Below, piece after piece: positions 7,984 through 13,832 of a DNA stretch of 52,885 nt; within the stretch, counting starts at the first letter, position 1; each line of letters starts with the position of its first letter. A program made the translations under genes and the position numbers. The notes beneath the pieces are model-generated. The model did not search any database and had not been told where the DNA came from. It saw only the letters and a program-made list of their open reading frames with translations. The stretch spans positions 1 through 52,885 of the IMG/VR virus record IMGVR_UViG_3300037493_004106; one strand, written 5' to 3'. The stretch is from a virus. Lineage: Duplodnaviria; Caudoviricetes.

Positions 7984-8009
7984 GGTTGTTCTGATTTTGA
8001 CTATATTTG
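7981..8009 (+). promoter_or_regulatory. Bacteroidota-type housekeeping promoter (candidate)
   Basis: TTTG (7981-7984) and TATATTTG (8002-8009) match the -33/-7 consensus TTTG/TAnnTTTG; 17-nt spacer is short. Confidence 0.5.
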
Positions 8010-8029
8010 CTTATTATTTGTATGTTTTT

Positions 8030-8317
8030 ATGTTTTATCAGTTGCCTAATGGCAAAACTATTATTATCTCTATAGAAGACTATCTAGATATGAGTGATGC
8101 CGACATAGATTTTTTAGTAAAAGCAAATGTGGGTAGTCAATTAAACAATCCATGGGCAAATTCTGCAATAAAGGAAGAAAAGAAAAAAAAAGAATCTACA
8201 GATTTAGATTATGAGTATGAAGATGATGATGATGAATCATTTGATAATACTGACATTTCAATAGAAGATATAGAAACATCTATTGAAGAACTTCCTGACA
8301 ATCTTCTCAATATTTAA
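8030..8317 (+). CDS. Hypothetical protein with acidic C-terminal tail
   Basis: Likely start ATG 8030 (MFYQLPNGKTIIISIEDYL); the track's N-terminal extension spans the terminator and promoter. Confidence 0.75.
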   Translation: MFYQLPNGKTIIISIEDYLDMSDADIDFLVKANVGSQLNNPWANSAIKEEKKKKESTDLDYEYEDDDDESFDNTDISIEDIETSIEELPDNLLNI

Positions 8318-8325
8318 TAAAATTA

Positions 8326-8396
8326 ACTGTTCCGGAACAGTAATATAATACATAGGTAAGGGTCTTCCTATTGTATTATTAAATCTATAGACCTAT
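8326..8396 (+). promoter_or_regulatory. Perfect 16-bp palindrome plus stem-loop / possible pseudoknot leader
   Basis: ACTGTTCCGGAACAGT (8326-8341); stem 8345-8356/8367-8379; loop GGTCT complementary to AGACC (8389-8393). Confidence 0.5.
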
Positions 8397-8417
8397 TAAC
8401 TCAATAATCTATTTATT

Positions 8418-8876
8418 ATGAATTCAAAAGTAAAAGTACTAGCTAATGAAGCTGGTAGCACAGTAATTGTATCAGAAAACAATCCAGAGTATGGTCACAT
8501 CAGTGTATGCCAAGAACGAGCTCAATTTGATGAAAAAACAAGCTTTGTAAAAATTAAAACTACTTATGCACTTATTGCTGGTAAAGTAGAAGATTTACGC
8601 AAATTAGGATGGACTGCTAACAAAGAATTGCCTGGTAAAATTGTAATTAAAGAATCATTGAATTCTTTTAATACAAAAGAACCACAACGCGATTATAAAT
8701 ATGCTGGTGATTCTGGTATTGTTTGTACAGTAAATGATCAACCAATTTATCGCAAATTATTCTATAGCCCAAGTGAGGAGTCTAAAGATGCATTTGTAGC
8801 ACATGATAATGGAGAAGTTATTAAAGCTTCTTATCGCCAAGCTCTTGCTGCTAATAAAGAAGAGTTCGAAGCATAA
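8418..8876 (+). CDS. Crassvirales-type protein, putative ssDNA-binding protein
   Basis: Beta-rich 152 aa with acidic/aromatic tail (EEFEA), own structured leader and terminator; function inferred. Confidence 0.55.
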   Translation: MNSKVKVLANEAGSTVIVSENNPEYGHISVCQERAQFDEKTSFVKIKTTYALIAGKVEDLRKLGWTANKELPGKIVIKESLNSFNTKEPQRDYKYAGDSGIVCTVNDQPIYRKLFYSPSEESKDAFVAHDNGEVIKASYRQALAANKEEFEA

Positions 8877-8895
8877 GCAAAATAAATAAGTAGAG

Positions 8896-8923
8896 AAAGG
8901 GGAGGCAAATGCTTCCCCTTTTT
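8896..8923 (+). terminator. Intrinsic terminator
   Basis: AAAGGGGAGGC-AAAT-GCTTCCCCTTTTT. Confidence 0.8.
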
Positions 8924-8955
8924 CATATATAAAAACAACTAAAAAAATAAATATT

Positions 8956-9387
8956 ATGGTTCCGCATAAACAAATAGAAAGAATGAATTTTAGCATTGAT
9001 AAATTCAATGACTATCAAAATTTCTTATACAAAAGATTAATGTTTGGATTGAAAGCATATCCTAAACATGAAACTGATAAGATGACAAAAGAAAAGAGAC
9101 AATCTATAATGAAATTACATTATAAAGCACAAAGTGAATTAAATGTTTGGAAACAAACTCTTTGTAATGACTTGTGCAATAAGTTTCTTAAGGTAACATT
9201 TCCTAAAAGTATTCTAGCTAGTATACTTGTAGAAAAATATGGTAATGATACTGATGTAAATTACTTTAATAAAGTAAACTTTAAAGATCTAAAGATTAAT
9301 AAAGAAGATATTATTAGTAAATTTATAGATCTAAAATTACTACCACTAAACTATTATAAACTAACAAATGAAAAGCTATGCAAATAG
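8956..9387 (+). CDS. Hypothetical protein
   Basis: 143-aa ORF. Confidence 0.75.
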   Translation: MVPHKQIERMNFSIDKFNDYQNFLYKRLMFGLKAYPKHETDKMTKEKRQSIMKLHYKAQSELNVWKQTLCNDLCNKFLKVTFPKSILASILVEKYGNDTDVNYFNKVNFKDLKINKEDIISKFIDLKLLPLNYYKLTNEKLCK

Positions 9388-9614
9388 AATTTTTAGTGAA
9401 TGGTGGTATATCAATCATATTATCACCAGAAAATGATATGGAGATTGCTTTACTTAAACAATTCTGTAAACAGAAAAATGATATTACAGAAATTAGATCA
9501 AGTATTATAATACTTAATAAAACACACAGAGGTGGAGTACTTATTGGTAAGGAAACTATAGGCAAATCAGAAATTGATGAAATTAAAAAAGAAGATTTGC
9601 AGCAATTGCAATAA
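9378..9614 (+). CDS. Hypothetical protein
   Basis: ORF overlapping both neighbours. Confidence 0.65.
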   Translation: MQIEFLVNGGISIILSPENDMEIALLKQFCKQKNDITEIRSSIIILNKTHRGGVLIGKETIGKSEIDEIKKEDLQQLQ

Positions 9615-10002
9615 GGAAGAAATCATTTGGAAAAATAGTGGAGGCAAGAGATTTTGTCAGAAGTGCTGGAAACTGGAGTTGACATGCACCTACATCAAAA
9701 AGAGTAAACCAATCAAGAAAAAGGCAAAATCTCTTCCTCGCTATTCCAAAAAAAGAAAAGAACTAGATAAAGAATACTCTGAAAGCAGAAAGATATTTTT
9801 ATCTAACTATCCTTTATGTCAAGCTCATTTACCAAGCATATGTACTCAGTTATCTACTGATGTACATCATGTTGCTGGTAGAATGGGATCACTCTATTTA
9901 GATAAAACCAATTGGTTATCTCTTTGTAGATCCTGTCATATGTGGATAGAAAATAATTTAAAATTAGCTCGAGAAATGGGCTTATCTAAAAGTAAAATTT
10001 AA
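9574..10002 (+). CDS. HNH endonuclease with N-terminal zinc ribbon
   Basis: CSNC...CQKC; C...C...TDVHHVAGR...NWLSLCRSCH. Confidence 0.85.
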   Translation: MMKLKKKICSNCNKEEIIWKNSGGKRFCQKCWKLELTCTYIKKSKPIKKKAKSLPRYSKKRKELDKEYSESRKIFLSNYPLCQAHLPSICTQLSTDVHHVAGRMGSLYLDKTNWLSLCRSCHMWIENNLKLAREMGLSKSKI

Positions 10003-10561
10003 AACTTAGAAATCATGGGACAATATGGAAAATATTTTGTATATTTGACCCATGAAAAGATCGAAATTATATACACTATGGTGCGCCATAAAGTCTAGAT
10101 GTTTTAATAAAAATATTAAAACTTACAAATATTATGGAGGAAGAAATATAACCTTGTATGAATTATGGAAAAATGATTTTTCTTTATTTAAAGATTATGT
10201 TTCTTCTTTAGAAAACTATGATGTTTCTAATATTTGTAGAAATGGAATAACTTTAGATAGAATAAATTCTGATAAAAATTATGAACCAGGCAATCTGCGT
10301 TGGGTAAATATGGAATTGCAATGCAGAAATAGAAGAAAAAAAAATAACTCTAAAAGCAAATACATAGGTGTATCTGAGGATAAAAGTGGTACAAGATTAA
10401 AAAAATGGTCTGCTAGAATTACTATTAATAAAAAAACTATAAGAATAGGAAGATATCATACTCAAGAAGAAGCTAAGCAGGCAAGAGATCAGTATATTAT
10501 TGATCATAAATTAGAAAACTTTATGTTAAACAATTAAAAACTAGAAATTATCGGACAATAT
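10001..10561 (+). mobile_element. Free-standing homing endonuclease insertion bounded by an imperfect 26-bp direct repeat of a gene start
   Basis: AAAACTTAGAAATCATGGGACAATAT (10001-10026) versus AAAAACTAGAAATTATCGGACAATAT (10536-10561). Confidence 0.75.
10052..10537 (+). CDS. HNH-type endonuclease with C-terminal AP2 DNA-binding domain
   Basis: W..IKSRC...YGGRNI...TLDRINSDKNYEPGNLRW; AP2-like YIGVS...KWSARI...IGRY..QEEA; TATATTTG -7 box at 10040-10047. Confidence 0.9.
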   Translation: MKRSKLYTLWCAIKSRCFNKNIKTYKYYGGRNITLYELWKNDFSLFKDYVSSLENYDVSNICRNGITLDRINSDKNYEPGNLRWVNMELQCRNRRKKNNSKSKYIGVSEDKSGTRLKKWSARITINKKTIRIGRYHTQEEAKQARDQYIIDHKLENFMLNN

Positions 10562-11083
10562 TACGTAGCAGTAAATATGGATGACATGGAACATGTTAGT
10601 CCATATAAATATGATAATGGTGCTAAACTTATGGAGCATTCATATGTAGGAAATAACTTTGTAGAAGCTGTAGAGTTTTTACTTATTGATGATGGAGAGC
10701 AAAAAGCTAGATGGTCTGGCAAAAGAATAGTATGGGCAGGTGATTATGCAGATCCTGAAGAAAAAGATGGAAATAATCTTTATGATAAAGCAGAAGGCAA
10801 TGGACTTCAAATGTTAATAGAAGCTTCACCAAGTAACTATCTTTACCTAGTGAATCTAGATAAAAAAGAATATGTAAACAAAACTAAGTGTCCTAAATAT
10901 GGCGAAGACAATGATTGGCAAATACATCCTCTTCCTCTATTAACAGCAGATGGTAATGGTAGAGGTGGTGGAGATTATCGAGAAGATAACAACTATGTAG
11001 GTACATGGTCTAGAAATAGAATAGCTCTTATGAAAGAACCACCTGCAGGATACATGGAGATAACACCTAATTTTACAGAGTAG
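10550..11083 (+). CDS. Phage protein of the (M)GQYY...IHPLPLLT type; start codon uncertain
   Basis: Frame open from ATC 10550 (xGQYYVAVNMD), first ATG 10577; WAGDY, IHPLPLLTADGNGRGGGDY. Confidence 0.8.
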   Translation: MGQYYVAVNMDDMEHVSPYKYDNGAKLMEHSYVGNNFVEAVEFLLIDDGEQKARWSGKRIVWAGDYADPEEKDGNNLYDKAEGNGLQMLIEASPSNYLYLVNLDKKEYVNKTKCPKYGEDNDWQIHPLPLLTADGNGRGGGDYREDNNYVGTWSRNRIALMKEPPAGYMEITPNFTE

Positions 11084-11085
11084 CT

Positions 11086-11301
11086 ATGAATAAAGACAAA
11101 CACATATGGGAAGGATGGACTGTATCTGATTTTATAGATGCATTAGAACCTAGGTTTAATCAAATAACACAGAATCAATCCTGGCAAAAACCTTTTGAGA
11201 GTAAGGAAGAACTCAAAAGATGGTGTATGGATAATCAACCATACTATAAAAAACATATTCCAGAAGTTTATAATCATTTTAAAAGTAAAATCAATTTATG
11301 A
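11086..11301 (+). CDS. Hypothetical phage protein
   Basis: HIWEGWTV...WCMDNQPYYKK. Confidence 0.8.
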   Translation: MNKDKHIWEGWTVSDFIDALEPRFNQITQNQSWQKPFESKEELKRWCMDNQPYYKKHIPEVYNHFKSKINL

Positions 11302-11501
11302 AAAAGAAATTTAAAAGTGGTGACTTTATAGAAAATATTTATACAGGTGAAATTGAAATGATTGATGAAATAGAAAGCACAATATTAGGAGGCTTTTGCT
11401 TATATGTCTATTCAGAAGATTGGTCACAATTTGTAAGAATACTTTCACTAGAACAGTATAGAGTTATTTCTCCAAAAGAAATAAAATTTAATTTAAAATA
11501 A
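11298..11501 (+). CDS. Hypothetical protein
   Basis: ATGA-coupled ORF, KFKSGD start. Confidence 0.65.
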   Translation: MKKKFKSGDFIENIYTGEIEMIDEIESTILGGFCLYVYSEDWSQFVRILSLEQYRVISPKEIKFNLK

Positions 11502-11507
11502 ATATTT

Positions 11508-11636
11508 ATGGGTAAAATGAAAGAAGTATTTATTCTTAAACAAGAGCATATTAAATATTATCCGGAAGATAAAGACAAACCAGATTCTTATTTTATAAAA
11601 CTCTATCTAGATAAATTAAATAAAAAAAATAAATAA
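11508..11636 (+). CDS. Small hypothetical protein (42 aa, not in track)
   Basis: MGKMKEVFI...; fills the gap before the helicase. Confidence 0.55.
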   Translation: MGKMKEVFILKQEHIKYYPEDKDKPDSYFIKLYLDKLNKKNK

Positions 11637-11642
11637 AACTTT

Positions 11643-12586
11643 ATGAATAGGGATATAGTCCAAAAAGAAGCTCTTTCAATTTTGTGTTCCTACTCTAGAT
11701 GTGGAGTAGGAATATCAGTTGGAATTGGTAAAACACTTATAGCACTTAAACATTTGGAGGCAAACTATAAACCTGATATTAAAGTTTTAGTTGTTGCTCC
11801 TAAAAAAAGTATATACACATCTTGGATAGATGATTCAAAGAAATTTAGTCTTGAATATTTATTAAGAAACATAGAGTTTACTACATATTTATCCTTAAAT
11901 AAAAAAGACTTTAACTATGATATTATTTATTTGGATGAAGCTCATAGTTTAAAACTTAATCATGACTCGTGGTTATCTAAATATACTGGTAAAATACTAG
12001 GATTAACTGGTACACCACCAAGAGATGATAAATCAGAGAAGGCTTATATGATCAATAAGTATTGTCCTATTGTCTATAGATACATTATTAAGAAAGCTGT
12101 TGATGATAAAATATTAAATGACTATAGAATTGTAGTACATCCATTATATCTAGATAGTGATAAAAATGTTAAACTAAAACATGGCAATAAAGAATGGTAT
12201 AGCTCTGAAACAGAAATATATGATTATTGGTCTAAAAGAATTAATAATTCTAAAACTAAGAAAGAGCAACAAATAATGAATGTAATGCGAATGAAAGCTA
12301 TGATGGATTTTCCTAGTAAGCTTCATTATGCTAAAAGTCTATTAGAAAGCTCTCCTAATAAATGCATAGTGTTTGCTAATACACAAGAGCAAGCAGATAG
12401 ATTATGTAAGGATAGCTATCATAGTAATAATCCTAACTCTGAAGATACCCTAATCAAATTTAAAAATAATGAAATCAATAGATTATCATGTGTTTTACAA
12501 TTAAATGAGGGTGTAAATATTCCTAATCTAAAAGAAGGAATAATTATGCATGCTTATGGTAATGAAAGAAAGAGTGTCCAGAGGAT
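11643..12586 (+). CDS. Superfamily 2 (DEAH-box) helicase, exon 1
   Basis: GIGKT, DEAH, TGT, LNEGVNIP; breaks inside motif VI (QR-I). Confidence 0.9.
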
Positions 12587-12747
12587 AAACATACCTGTCC
12601 TCTTTAAATCCCTTTAATTGTCTGGAAAGCTAAGTCAGAAATGATATGCCAATCAGCAGCCAAGCCTAAGCAGTCTGCTTATGAAGGTTCAGAGACTATC
12701 TAGAAATAGAGTACATGTAATTAGCTATTACATGGAAACGGGGGACA

Positions 12748-12778
12748 TTTGCATAATTAAATATTTTATCTACCTTTG
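12748..12778 (+). promoter_or_regulatory. Intron-internal Bacteroidota-type promoter for the homing endonuclease
   Basis: TTTG-N19-TACCTTTG matches the consensus. Confidence 0.7.
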
Positions 12779-12799
12779 CTTTGTACAATACACAAAGAT

Positions 12800-13684
12800 A
12801 TGGAAGATATAAAATATAAACTTTATTCATTAAGTGATGAAACTGGTGTTAGATATATTGGAATAACAAAGCAAAAGTTATTATATAGATTATCTGGACA
12901 TCTCGCATCATGTAGACAAGCATTTAAAAACAAAAAATCTAGACATTATAGACATTGTTGGATAAAATCTCTATTGGATAGAAACATTAAACCCACAATA
13001 TCTTTAATAGCTGAATTTAATTCTTCTGAACAAGTTAAACAAGTTGAAATTGCTACTATTAAGTTATATAAAAACTTAGTAAATGGTACAGCTGGTGGTG
13101 ATGGAATAAGAGAATATAAATTCAGTGAAGAATATCTAGAAACTAAAAGATTTAAAGTGGATCAATATGATTTACATGGAAATCTTTTAGCAACATTTAA
13201 AAGTTTGTCAGAAGCTTCATTAATAATAACAGGAACTGAAAAATATAATGGAAAAATTTCAGCTGTTACAAAAGGAAAATACGGAAGAAGAACAGCATTT
13301 GGTTGTGTATGGAGAATACATAACGAGCCATTTGATAAATATCCAGTTACTCCACAAATAAATATTACTGAAGCTCAAAAAAAAGCATTAAGCAAAAGAC
13401 AATTAGAAAATAATGTAATGAAAAATAAATTGGGTTTACAAAATATAAAAAGTAAACCTGTACTAATACTAAATACTGAAAATGTAATATTAAATATTGC
13501 TGAATCAGTTAGAGAAGTTGCTGTCATTACTAAATTATCAAGAAGTTGTGTTGCTAAAATGTTTAAATTGAATAAAGAAGTTGCTGGTTATAAACTAGCA
13601 TATGCAAATGAAGATATAGTCCAATCCTTACAGAAATGTAAGAGTTCAACATTAACAGCTTTTGTTGGACAAACTTATGCCTAG
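12800..13684 (+). CDS. Intron-encoded GIY-YIG homing endonuclease with NUMOD1-like domains
   Basis: KLYSL...RYIGIT...RLSGH...E...N; VDQYDLHGNLLATFKSLSEAS; likely start ATG 12800. Confidence 0.88.
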   Translation: MEDIKYKLYSLSDETGVRYIGITKQKLLYRLSGHLASCRQAFKNKKSRHYRHCWIKSLLDRNIKPTISLIAEFNSSEQVKQVEIATIKLYKNLVNGTAGGDGIREYKFSEEYLETKRFKVDQYDLHGNLLATFKSLSEASLIITGTEKYNGKISAVTKGKYGRRTAFGCVWRIHNEPFDKYPVTPQINITEAQKKALSKRQLENNVMKNKLGLQNIKSKPVLILNTENVILNIAESVREVAVITKLSRSCVAKMFKLNKEVAGYKLAYANEDIVQSLQKCKSSTLTAFVGQTYA

Positions 13685-13832
13685 AGGTAGGCTATTAAGA
13701 TTAAATCCTGATGATACAGCTATTGTAAGAATACTATGTTATAAAGATACAGTTGATGAGAAATGGGTATCTACTGCACTATTAGATTTTGATAATGACA
13801 AAATAATGTGGGTTACTGATAATGAATTATGA
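13685..13832 (+). CDS. SF2 helicase, exon 2 (spliced product 363 aa)
   Basis: (I)GRLLRLNPDDTAIVRILCYKDTVDEKWV... to TGA 13832. Confidence 0.9.

Follow-up and report, generated by a model that had tools for sequence, protein, structure and literature searches.

Intronless homing in T-even phages, as set out in the accessible text of PMC2988022, involves nuclease genes without an intron that lie beside or within conserved genes, are present in some phages and absent from others, co-convert their flanks and cause marker exclusion. The same text describes coding regions interrupted by such genes while the host gene remains functional, namely by mobE in nrdA of Aeh1, by mobA between genes 39 and 60 of T4 and by a seg gene in gene 43 of phage 25. 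A ShiLan-type element, in the accessible part of PMC11855218, is an actively homing HNH gene inside a phage methylase gene and is neither intron nor intein. Here we analyzed a virus record of 52,885 base pairs, IMGVR_UViG_3300037493_004106 (Duplodnaviria; Caudoviricetes; estimated completeness 44%, GC content 29%), the whole of which is called the window below. It holds a 535-nucleotide (nt) insert with a predicted nuclease gene within the first codons of a gene of the MGQYY family, and behind the insert the gene continues from ATC in place of the family's ATG. By its comparative features the case is a variant of intronless homing.

The locus resembles the T-even SegF, SegG and MobE systems in that the nuclease open reading frame (ORF) is far better conserved than its flanks, and in one related locus (L109) the conversion tract ends after codon 6. 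Unlike those systems, of which the T4 cases leave start codons alone, the nuclease gene here lies inside the first codons of its target, comes with a spare non-AUG start and has a predicted AP2 domain. In the gene-splitting cases two polypeptides reassemble, whereas here a four-codon upstream piece would be discarded and the downstream piece carries the entire coding sequence but for the AUG. The ShiLan-type element is translated in frame with its host gene and forms part of that protein, with the nuclease made from an out-of-frame GTG (accessible part of PMC11855218), whereas here the host gene would restart behind the insert. Our literature search, with subscription journals and supplements outside it, returned gene-splitting and in-frame HNH insertions (PMC2988022, PMC11855218, accessible parts) and no homing nuclease that replaces a start codon.

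The reading we favor, with a probability of roughly 0.6, is that a homing-type cassette brings its own gene start and that the gene is then read from a near-cognate AUC, AUA or AUU codon. A start of the infC type, AUU or AUA, is an autoregulatory device of a cellular gene; unlike it, the start described here seems to have been forced on the gene by selfish DNA, and AUC is among its codons. According to the accessible text of PMC5499595, the initiator tRNA decodes near-cognate AUH codons in a strongly context-dependent manner, and mRNAs starting with AUA and AUU were translated in E. coli extracts, again depending on context.

The cassette, its mobility and its target gene

Architecture, mobility signature and recurrence in several phage backgrounds together show, at the level of sequence comparison, a free-standing homing-type cassette at the start of the gene. 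The features of the locus are listed here.

9574 to 10002, plus strand: upstream gene of 142 amino acids (aa), zinc-ribbon and HNH-like (ORF; phrog_144, E 5.9e-10)
9994 to 10026, plus strand: upstream repeat copy, the recipient's native leader and the orphaned ATG GGA CAA TAT (ATG at 10015-10017)
10013 to 10055, plus strand: predicted RNA hairpin, the orphan AUG region paired with the nuclease AUG region (-14.9 kcal/mol)
10015 to 10098, plus strand: orphan frame of 27 codons (MGQYGKYF...), beginning at the native ATG and overlapping the nuclease start in another frame
10027 to 10561, no strand: mobile cassette insert of 535 nt, with a 9-nt ambiguity of placement (10018-10552 to 10027-10561)
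10052 to 10537, plus strand: nuclease-like ORF of 161 aa (ORF, domains, model)
10529 to 10561, plus strand: downstream repeat copy, the cassette leader and ATC GGA CAA TAT, with an in-frame TAA at -15
10550 to 11083, plus strand: full-length target gene of the MGQYY family, 177 codons plus stop, with ATC in place of the family's ATG
10577 to 10579, plus strand: first canonical in-frame start, ATG at codon 10, the start a gene caller would pick (168-aa ORF 10577-11083)

An earlier note on this DNA had placed two copies of a leader and first codons 535 nt apart, the ATG copy running into a dead frame of 27 aa and the ATC copy into the frame of the 10577 ORF, and both its coordinates and its reading are right. 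The 33-nt direct repeat (9994-10026 and 10529-10561) is identical at 27 of 33 positions (82%); when 9500-11300 was resampled 100 times under a first-order Markov model, no 33-mer pair matched at more than 25 positions, so that 27 was never reached. The 9-mer GGACAATAT occurs three times in the window against 0.49 expected, whereas the leader does not behave as a general motif of this phage, with 7 matches in the window at no more than 3 mismatches and 5.0 expected. The nuclease-like ORF takes up 486 of the 535 nt, and its stop TAA (10535-10537) is the first triplet of the downstream leader, with the ATC (10550-10552) 12 nt further on and an ATT (10547-10549) immediately 5' of it. The ATC is in frame with 10577, in a frame open back to that TAA, and the downstream copy reads ATC GGA CAA TAT TAC GTA GCA GTA AAT ATG into the 10577 ORF.

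That the insertion duplicates a gene start was half right. The 33-nt repeat is present in the window, but in L002 only 12 nt, AT(G/C)GGACAGTAT, are repeated, since the orphan copy of L002 and L003 follows another gene and another leader; the length of the window's repeat comes from the cassette's own leader resembling the recipient's native one. The orphan frame does not seem to be conserved as a protein, since its TAG in the window is CAG in the aligned DNA of L002, where the frame is about three codons longer. The 142-aa gene upstream, whose TAA lies 12 nt 5' of the orphan ATG, is conserved and syntenic in L001, L002, L006 and L082; it is context and lies outside the mobile unit. The leader also recurs a third time, as a partial copy (TTAAAACTTACAAATA, 2 mismatches) followed by TTATGGAGGA inside the nuclease ORF (10116-10131); this copy lies within a conserved NKN.KTYKYYGG motif and may be a coincidence.

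Compared with L002, the window is 90.9% identical at the nucleotide level in the nuclease ORF, 60.0-60.6% in the two upstream genes and 71.4% in the target, and the high identity begins at the orphan ATG and fades after about codon 5 of the downstream copy. This combination, a nuclease element better conserved than its flanks and conversion tracts in the flank, is the one that marks intronless homing. The insert is also present or absent at one precise site, as seen in the window against L082 and a contig of sequencing run X2, in L002 against L001 and L004, in L109 against L120, and in a contig of run X4, which has the same left junction behind 30 nt identical to the L009 sequence upstream of the gene. 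In the metagenome contig L082 (88% protein identity), the same upstream gene is followed by an intact start without insert, ATG GGA CAA TAT TAC GTA GCA GTA AAT ATG GAT GAC ATG GAA CAT, the sole difference from the window's downstream copy being ATG for ATC. The single ATG GGA CAA TAT TAY that the earlier note expected of insertion-free relatives is found there, with TAC as the last codon, and its proposal that joining the repeats gives an intact start is matched by both L082 and the X2 contig. Mobility and empty sites likewise support its view that a mobile nuclease gene has inserted, without an intron, at the beginning of another gene.

The X2 contig, 876 nt long and from another sample, follows 9700-10017 with 2 differences and resumes at 10553, skipping exactly 535 nt; 9 letters at the joint fit either side, and the window's upstream-copy leader is joined straight to the gene body. 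Downstream of the joint it differs from the window at 13 letters and by a 3-nt deletion, and because of this divergence it represents another strain and not a processing product. Its 535-nt-deleted DNA may be either an ancestral empty site or a revertant that arose when the exact 9-nt repeats recombined. The deleted form that the earlier note proposed to look for was therefore found as DNA, in another sample and a diverged strain; none was seen among the contigs of run X1, the probable source of the window, where contigs would drop rare variants.

In L109 a 55%-identical nuclease stands after a promoter-like box and an orphan start, and then follows ATC GGA CAA TAC. Compared with the insert-free L120, L109 is identical from codon 7 and carries 5 wobble differences in codons 2-6; as the two differ only before codon 7, the cassette brought its own first codons. 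The orphan start of L109 (935-985) has decayed to a three-codon mini-ORF (GTG GGA CAA TAA) behind a TTTATCTTTACA box, and boxes like it precede the intact gene in L112, L113 and L120. A tblastn search with the nuclease over 161 loci and the window returned only the window itself (= L081), L002/L003/L083 (92.5%) and L109 (55.3%), and in viral contigs only L002/L003 appeared again, together with distant nucleases (at most 43% identity) in other contexts.

On the basis of its mobility and weak similarity, we infer that the 161-aa ORF is a putative nuclease. It matches PHROG families named HNH endonuclease (3.8e-42), scores 24.9 bits with Pfam AP2, under the cut-off of 33.3, and has no NCBIfam match. 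Its structural model (predicted local distance difference test, pLDDT, 90.6) has a strand-strand-helix unit at 66-92, and its C-terminal domain matches the AP2 domains of WRI1, ERF1 and TEM1 (Foldseek probability 1.00; root-mean-square deviation, rmsd, 2.0-2.4; Z 7.5, 7.2 and 6.7), so that in the model this domain is an AP2 DNA-binding fold. The earlier label HNH-AP2 is backed by the fold in its AP2 part, despite the Pfam score under the cut-off, while its HNH part draws on PHROG names and a weak match to PacI. Seven residues (R16, C17, Y28, R70, Y77, N81, N93) are invariant in 32 nuclease relatives. No relative of the locus was found among INPHARED phages, where the only match was one of 105 nt within the nuclease ORF (21 Staphylococcus phage records). 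A 51%-identical nuclease relative (P0134) starts with MGQ followed by TLREKL..., as if fused in frame to an orphaned target start; this is only a hint, being three residues on a 617-nt contig.

A homologue search with the 177-codon reading returned 4150 proteins, and the N-termini were read for 38 of the 120 listed. MGQY(Y/F) stands at or near the N-terminus in 32 of the 38, at residue 1 in 28 and after a longer call in 4, and the two closest homologues (87-88% identity) start MGQYYVAVNMDDMEHV. In a 29-sequence alignment G2, Q3 and Y4 are invariant, and in the target model (pLDDT 84.6) residues 5-9 form the first beta strand. Since homologues start MGQYY, the first codons after the ATC belong to the protein, as the earlier note had proposed; the echo between YVAVNMD and an internal YLVNLD that it offered as an argument adds nothing, the homologues deciding the point, and they do not as a rule begin at the Met of 10577. 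In 29 of the 120 nearest protein clusters, however, the called start is exactly Met13 or Met28, and the only one of these traced to DNA, P0025, which starts MEHV, is the ATC locus L002. Gene callers may thus truncate such genes (29/120 clusters; one DNA-checked), which is a warning for annotation. A scan with P0053 returned the L012 contig only.

The target protein has no Pfam or NCBIfam match, and its PHROG matches are only to families of unknown function. Its model gave no Foldseek match in the PDB at E <=0.001 and no VIA match with Z of at least 2; against the Atlas it matched hypothetical clusters, the two nearest of which are mostly viral. Homologues were also observed on GVMAG (giant-virus bin) contigs (L032, L044, L053, L054, L057, L058, L061, L068, L071, L076, L080), so the family spans phages and putative giant viruses.

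Recurrence of non-AUG starts

A single-protein scan of viral contigs found nothing and was rerun with an alignment query. Among 75 viral loci aligned from residue 1, the start codon was ATG in 65, GTG in 2, ATC in 5 and ATA in 3, and among 76 metagenome loci, which overlap in part with the viral set, it was ATG in 71 and ATC in 5. Ten lineages have a non-AUG start: three with the nuclease (the window, L002/3/83 and L109) and seven with ATC or ATA and neither nuclease nor orphan copy (L005, L010, L011/13, L012, L085, L142 and L077/L139). All three nuclease-bearing lineages have an orphan ATG or GTG copy, the nuclease and then ATC, none having a downstream ATG, and ATA was observed only in nuclease-less loci. 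The same ATC codon is present in independent assemblies (L002, L003, L005, L012, L085, L109, L142, L077/L139), so that it is no isolated sequencing error.

Five of the seven nuclease-less lineages share the cassette-type leader, including the last codons of the nuclease ORF (AAC AAT TAA), and this leader is missing in the close relatives L008, L084 and L001/L006. We tentatively read these loci as cassettes from which the nuclease gene has been lost. ATC also stands behind unrelated leaders, in L077/L139 and L142. A second ATC-linked flank, a short GC hairpin (GGGC..CCC..AAAGGG..), was observed at 1469-1500 of L109, 1470-1500 of L142 and 1470-1500 of L139, directly 5' of (A)ATT ATC or CTT ATC, with a nuclease in L109 and none in L142 and L139; the folds of this flank in the three loci were not significant.

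Between the upstream in-frame stop and codon 1, nine of the ten non-AUG loci checked have no ATG, GTG or TTG. All leader-type loci have the in-frame TAA at -15, L139 reads TAG CTT ATC, and in nine of the ten loci the codon before the ATC or ATA is itself ATC or ATT. The first ATG lies as far in as codon 26-33 in L011/13, L012, L085, L142 and L139. Over codons 2-27, nonsynonymous divergence (dN) in non-AUG loci is 0.02-0.35 against a synonymous divergence (dS) of 0.15-3.2, based on 14 of the 15 pairs without L012, the remaining one having a dS that could not be computed; the 6 pairs that include L012 were set aside for its 2-codon indel. N23, G24 and K26 are also kept where aligned in nuclease-less non-AUG loci. 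Because codons 2-27 are under selection with no earlier canonical start, translation must start at or beside the ATC or ATA, and selected codons ahead of the first canonical start, with no earlier in-frame start, were found in 9 of the 10 loci.

These comparisons make it likely that the complete protein is still made, with translation beginning at the AUC or at the AUU beside it, behind an A-rich leader without a Shine-Dalgarno sequence. Of the two routes to expression offered by the earlier note, they back non-AUG initiation, through the seven nuclease-less ATC/ATA lineages, the five with no ATG before codon 26-33 and purifying selection on codons 2-27. A Shine-Dalgarno-like 4-mer precedes 1 of 42 plus-strand ORFs of at least 100 aa, against a background of 11.7%, and the downstream leader is predicted to be unstructured. 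No tRNA was found in the window, so it supplies no special initiator. Gene starts in the window generally follow A-rich leaders, and in many homologous loci TAnnTTTG-like boxes stand upstream, which we take to be the Bacteroidota -7 promoter motif and which may point to Bacteroidota hosts. We also considered, and rejected, a nuclease-target fusion made by reading through the TAA, as the frames of the two ORFs agree in the window and in L002 but differ in L109.

Competing accounts of the ATC

The insertion might instead have damaged the gene, the ATC being no initiator and the protein being made only from Met10 (ATG 10577) or Met13 without the MGQYYVAVN strand. The canonical ATG at codon 10 of the window's gene, the choice of internal Mets by gene callers and the poor performance of AUC as an initiation codon in systems investigated to date all count for this account. 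We still judge it improbable, because G2, Q3 and Y4 are kept, with dN well below dS, in the very loci whose first ATG comes at codon 26-33, because residues 5-9 are the first beta strand of a confident model, and because the MEHV-starting cluster that would exemplify a Met13 start is an ATC locus. Somewhat less doubtful, though unlikely, is that the ATC or ATA is a real start unrelated to immunity, either a neutral hitch-hiker on the flank or a codon that lowers or conditions expression like the AUU of infC. Flank co-conversion would spread any linked variant (PMC2988022, accessible text), and the unrelated leaders of L077/L139 and L142, like the restriction of ATA to nuclease-less loci, fit such a history. 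It sits poorly with the retention of ATC in three of three nuclease-bearing lineages although the nucleases have diverged to 55% identity and their 3' flanks differ, with the need of a near-intact target in the downstream copy for some immunizing change, and with the dominance of ATG elsewhere (71/76 and 65/75 loci). In L002, moreover, the G-to-C change is the sole difference from the window's native site between about -14 and codon 3, codon 3 wobble apart. A dead or decaying target gene in the nuclease-bearing phages, with the ATC as simple loss of the start codon, is very improbable: the canonical start is gone and the gene could be dispensable, but the reading frame is unbroken over 177 codons in the window and, in every other ATC/ATA locus, across the whole match (query residues 1-175 or more), selection on it is purifying, and ATC or ATA has been maintained in lineages whose proteins are 41-74% identical to that of the window.

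Least credible of all is removal of the insert with rejoining of the upstream ATG to the gene body, whether by splicing, by ribosomal bypass between the matched GGA codons or by site-specific DNA excision. Matched repeats do flank the insert, the exactly 535-nt-deleted form exists as DNA in X2, and recombination in the 9-nt exact repeat would restore the ATG; the X2 contig, however, is another strain (13 positions and a 3-nt deletion). Rfam scans of 901 nt (9850-10750) and of L109 850-1650 found no intron at E <=10, and the nuclease ORF fills 486 of the 535 nt. In group I introns the 5' exon ends in U and the intron in G, a combination that no repeat junction offers; neither a ribozyme core nor such ends were found at the insert in these scanned regions. 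Known programmed bypass spans a gap of about 50 nt, and although the GGA codons match as in T4 gene 60, the gap here is 535 nt and holds an ORF. The nuclease-less ATC/ATA loci, finally, have no upstream copy to join and nothing to remove, so removal is not the expression route. The same small-region Rfam method found a group I intron (RF00028) at 12536-12806, about 2.5 kb downstream, as a positive control, and the earlier statement that no group I core is present thus stands. A 5-kb scan (8000-13000) and a 10-locus scan also gave no match, both being weak negatives for AT-rich phage DNA because the 5-kb scan missed an intron that a 1.8-kb scan finds (E 1.9e-12). Recurrence without the nuclease and the lack of an intron together make the earlier interpretation largely right on non-AUG initiation and wrong on precise removal of the insert at the DNA or RNA level.

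Several observations weigh against a cassette that imposes its own near-cognate start. Only three independent nuclease-bearing lineages and one partial contig are at hand. A similar leader is native, with ATG, in the distant relatives L025, L094 and L100, and for that reason the scar of a lost nuclease and a native leader are not fully separable in the nuclease-less ATC loci. L142 has an in-frame TTG 28 codons upstream, and the window's own gene has an ATG at codon 10, from which a truncated product is possible. No RNA run was listed as holding the stretch. As for the nuclease, no Pfam HNH model matches the 161-aa ORF at E <=10, its N-terminal domain resembles the HNH enzyme PacI (3m7k_A) only modestly (Z 5.5, rmsd 2.9, 76 residues), and the invariant R70, in an LDR motif, occupies what we take to be the place of the first His of HNH. 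The hairpin at the orphan AUG is significant only in the window: there 0 of 200 shuffles were as stable, whereas in L002 34 of 200 were as stable as the same shape (-8.6 kcal/mol), and in L109 the shape is absent.

Proposed mechanism, self-resistance and a neighboring intron

In the mechanism we propose, the 535-nt homing-type cassette would insert after nucleotide 12 of the MGQYY gene and strand the native leader and initial four codons of the recipient as an orphan. Together with the nuclease ORF, the cassette would supply a leader and the replacement start ATC GGA CAA TAT, so that the coding sequence stays whole except for its start codon. The predicted nuclease would recognize the near-invariant ATGGGACAATATTA start, and the resistant allele would persist after loss of the nuclease gene. 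The third base of ATG cannot change synonymously. There is about an even chance, in our estimate, that the G-to-C change at start position 3 is the self-resistance substitution of the nuclease-bearing allele, a plausible idea that the earlier note had also raised. Some immunizing change is needed because the downstream copy keeps a near-intact target, and the cassette flank of L002 differs from the window's native site only by G-to-C from about -14 to codon 3, apart from the codon 3 wobble. ATC has also survived the divergence of the nucleases to 55% identity and their acquisition of different 3' flanks.

The hairpin at 10013-10055 might throttle expression of the nuclease, a tentative suggestion from predicted folding; in T4, hairpins of a similar kind hold down the expression of nuclease genes (PMC2988022, accessible text). 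A wider and equally tentative proposal is that an AP2-type nuclease family lives on the start codon of one gene and protects itself by changing AUG to AUC, that the resistant allele outlives the nuclease and spreads AUC and AUA initiation through a phage clade, possibly affecting about a quarter of the nearest relatives, and that the 12-nt orphan serves as left homology arm and as part of a nuclease-throttling hairpin. If so, the affected quarter would explain the truncated gene calls among relatives, and the orphan homology arm would make the cassette portable between unrelated upstream contexts. If the favored reading is true, the locus would be a natural case of selfish DNA rewriting the initiation codon of a conserved gene, tolerated through near-cognate initiation. 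It would also offer a ready set of isogenic ATG, ATC and ATA alleles for gauging non-AUG initiation in Shine-Dalgarno-independent translation, and a testable example of self-immunity of a free-standing nuclease at a synonymously unchangeable site.

A different kind of insertion was observed further downstream, where a helicase-like gene is interrupted within 11643-13832. Its first ORF (11643-12617) ends in ...SVQR followed by INIPVLFKSL and the stop, the gene resumes in the ORF 13662-13832 (..PRGRLLRLNPDD..), and a 302-aa GIY-YIG-like ORF (12776-13684) lies between the halves. Rfam Intron_gpI matches 12536-12806 (53.9 bits, gathering score 50) and 13530-13643 (30.8 bits), and the region looks like a group I intron with a homing endonuclease. 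This intron (about 12536-13690) likewise interrupts a conserved gene, but its ribozyme is detectable by RF00028, whereas none was detected in the cassette.

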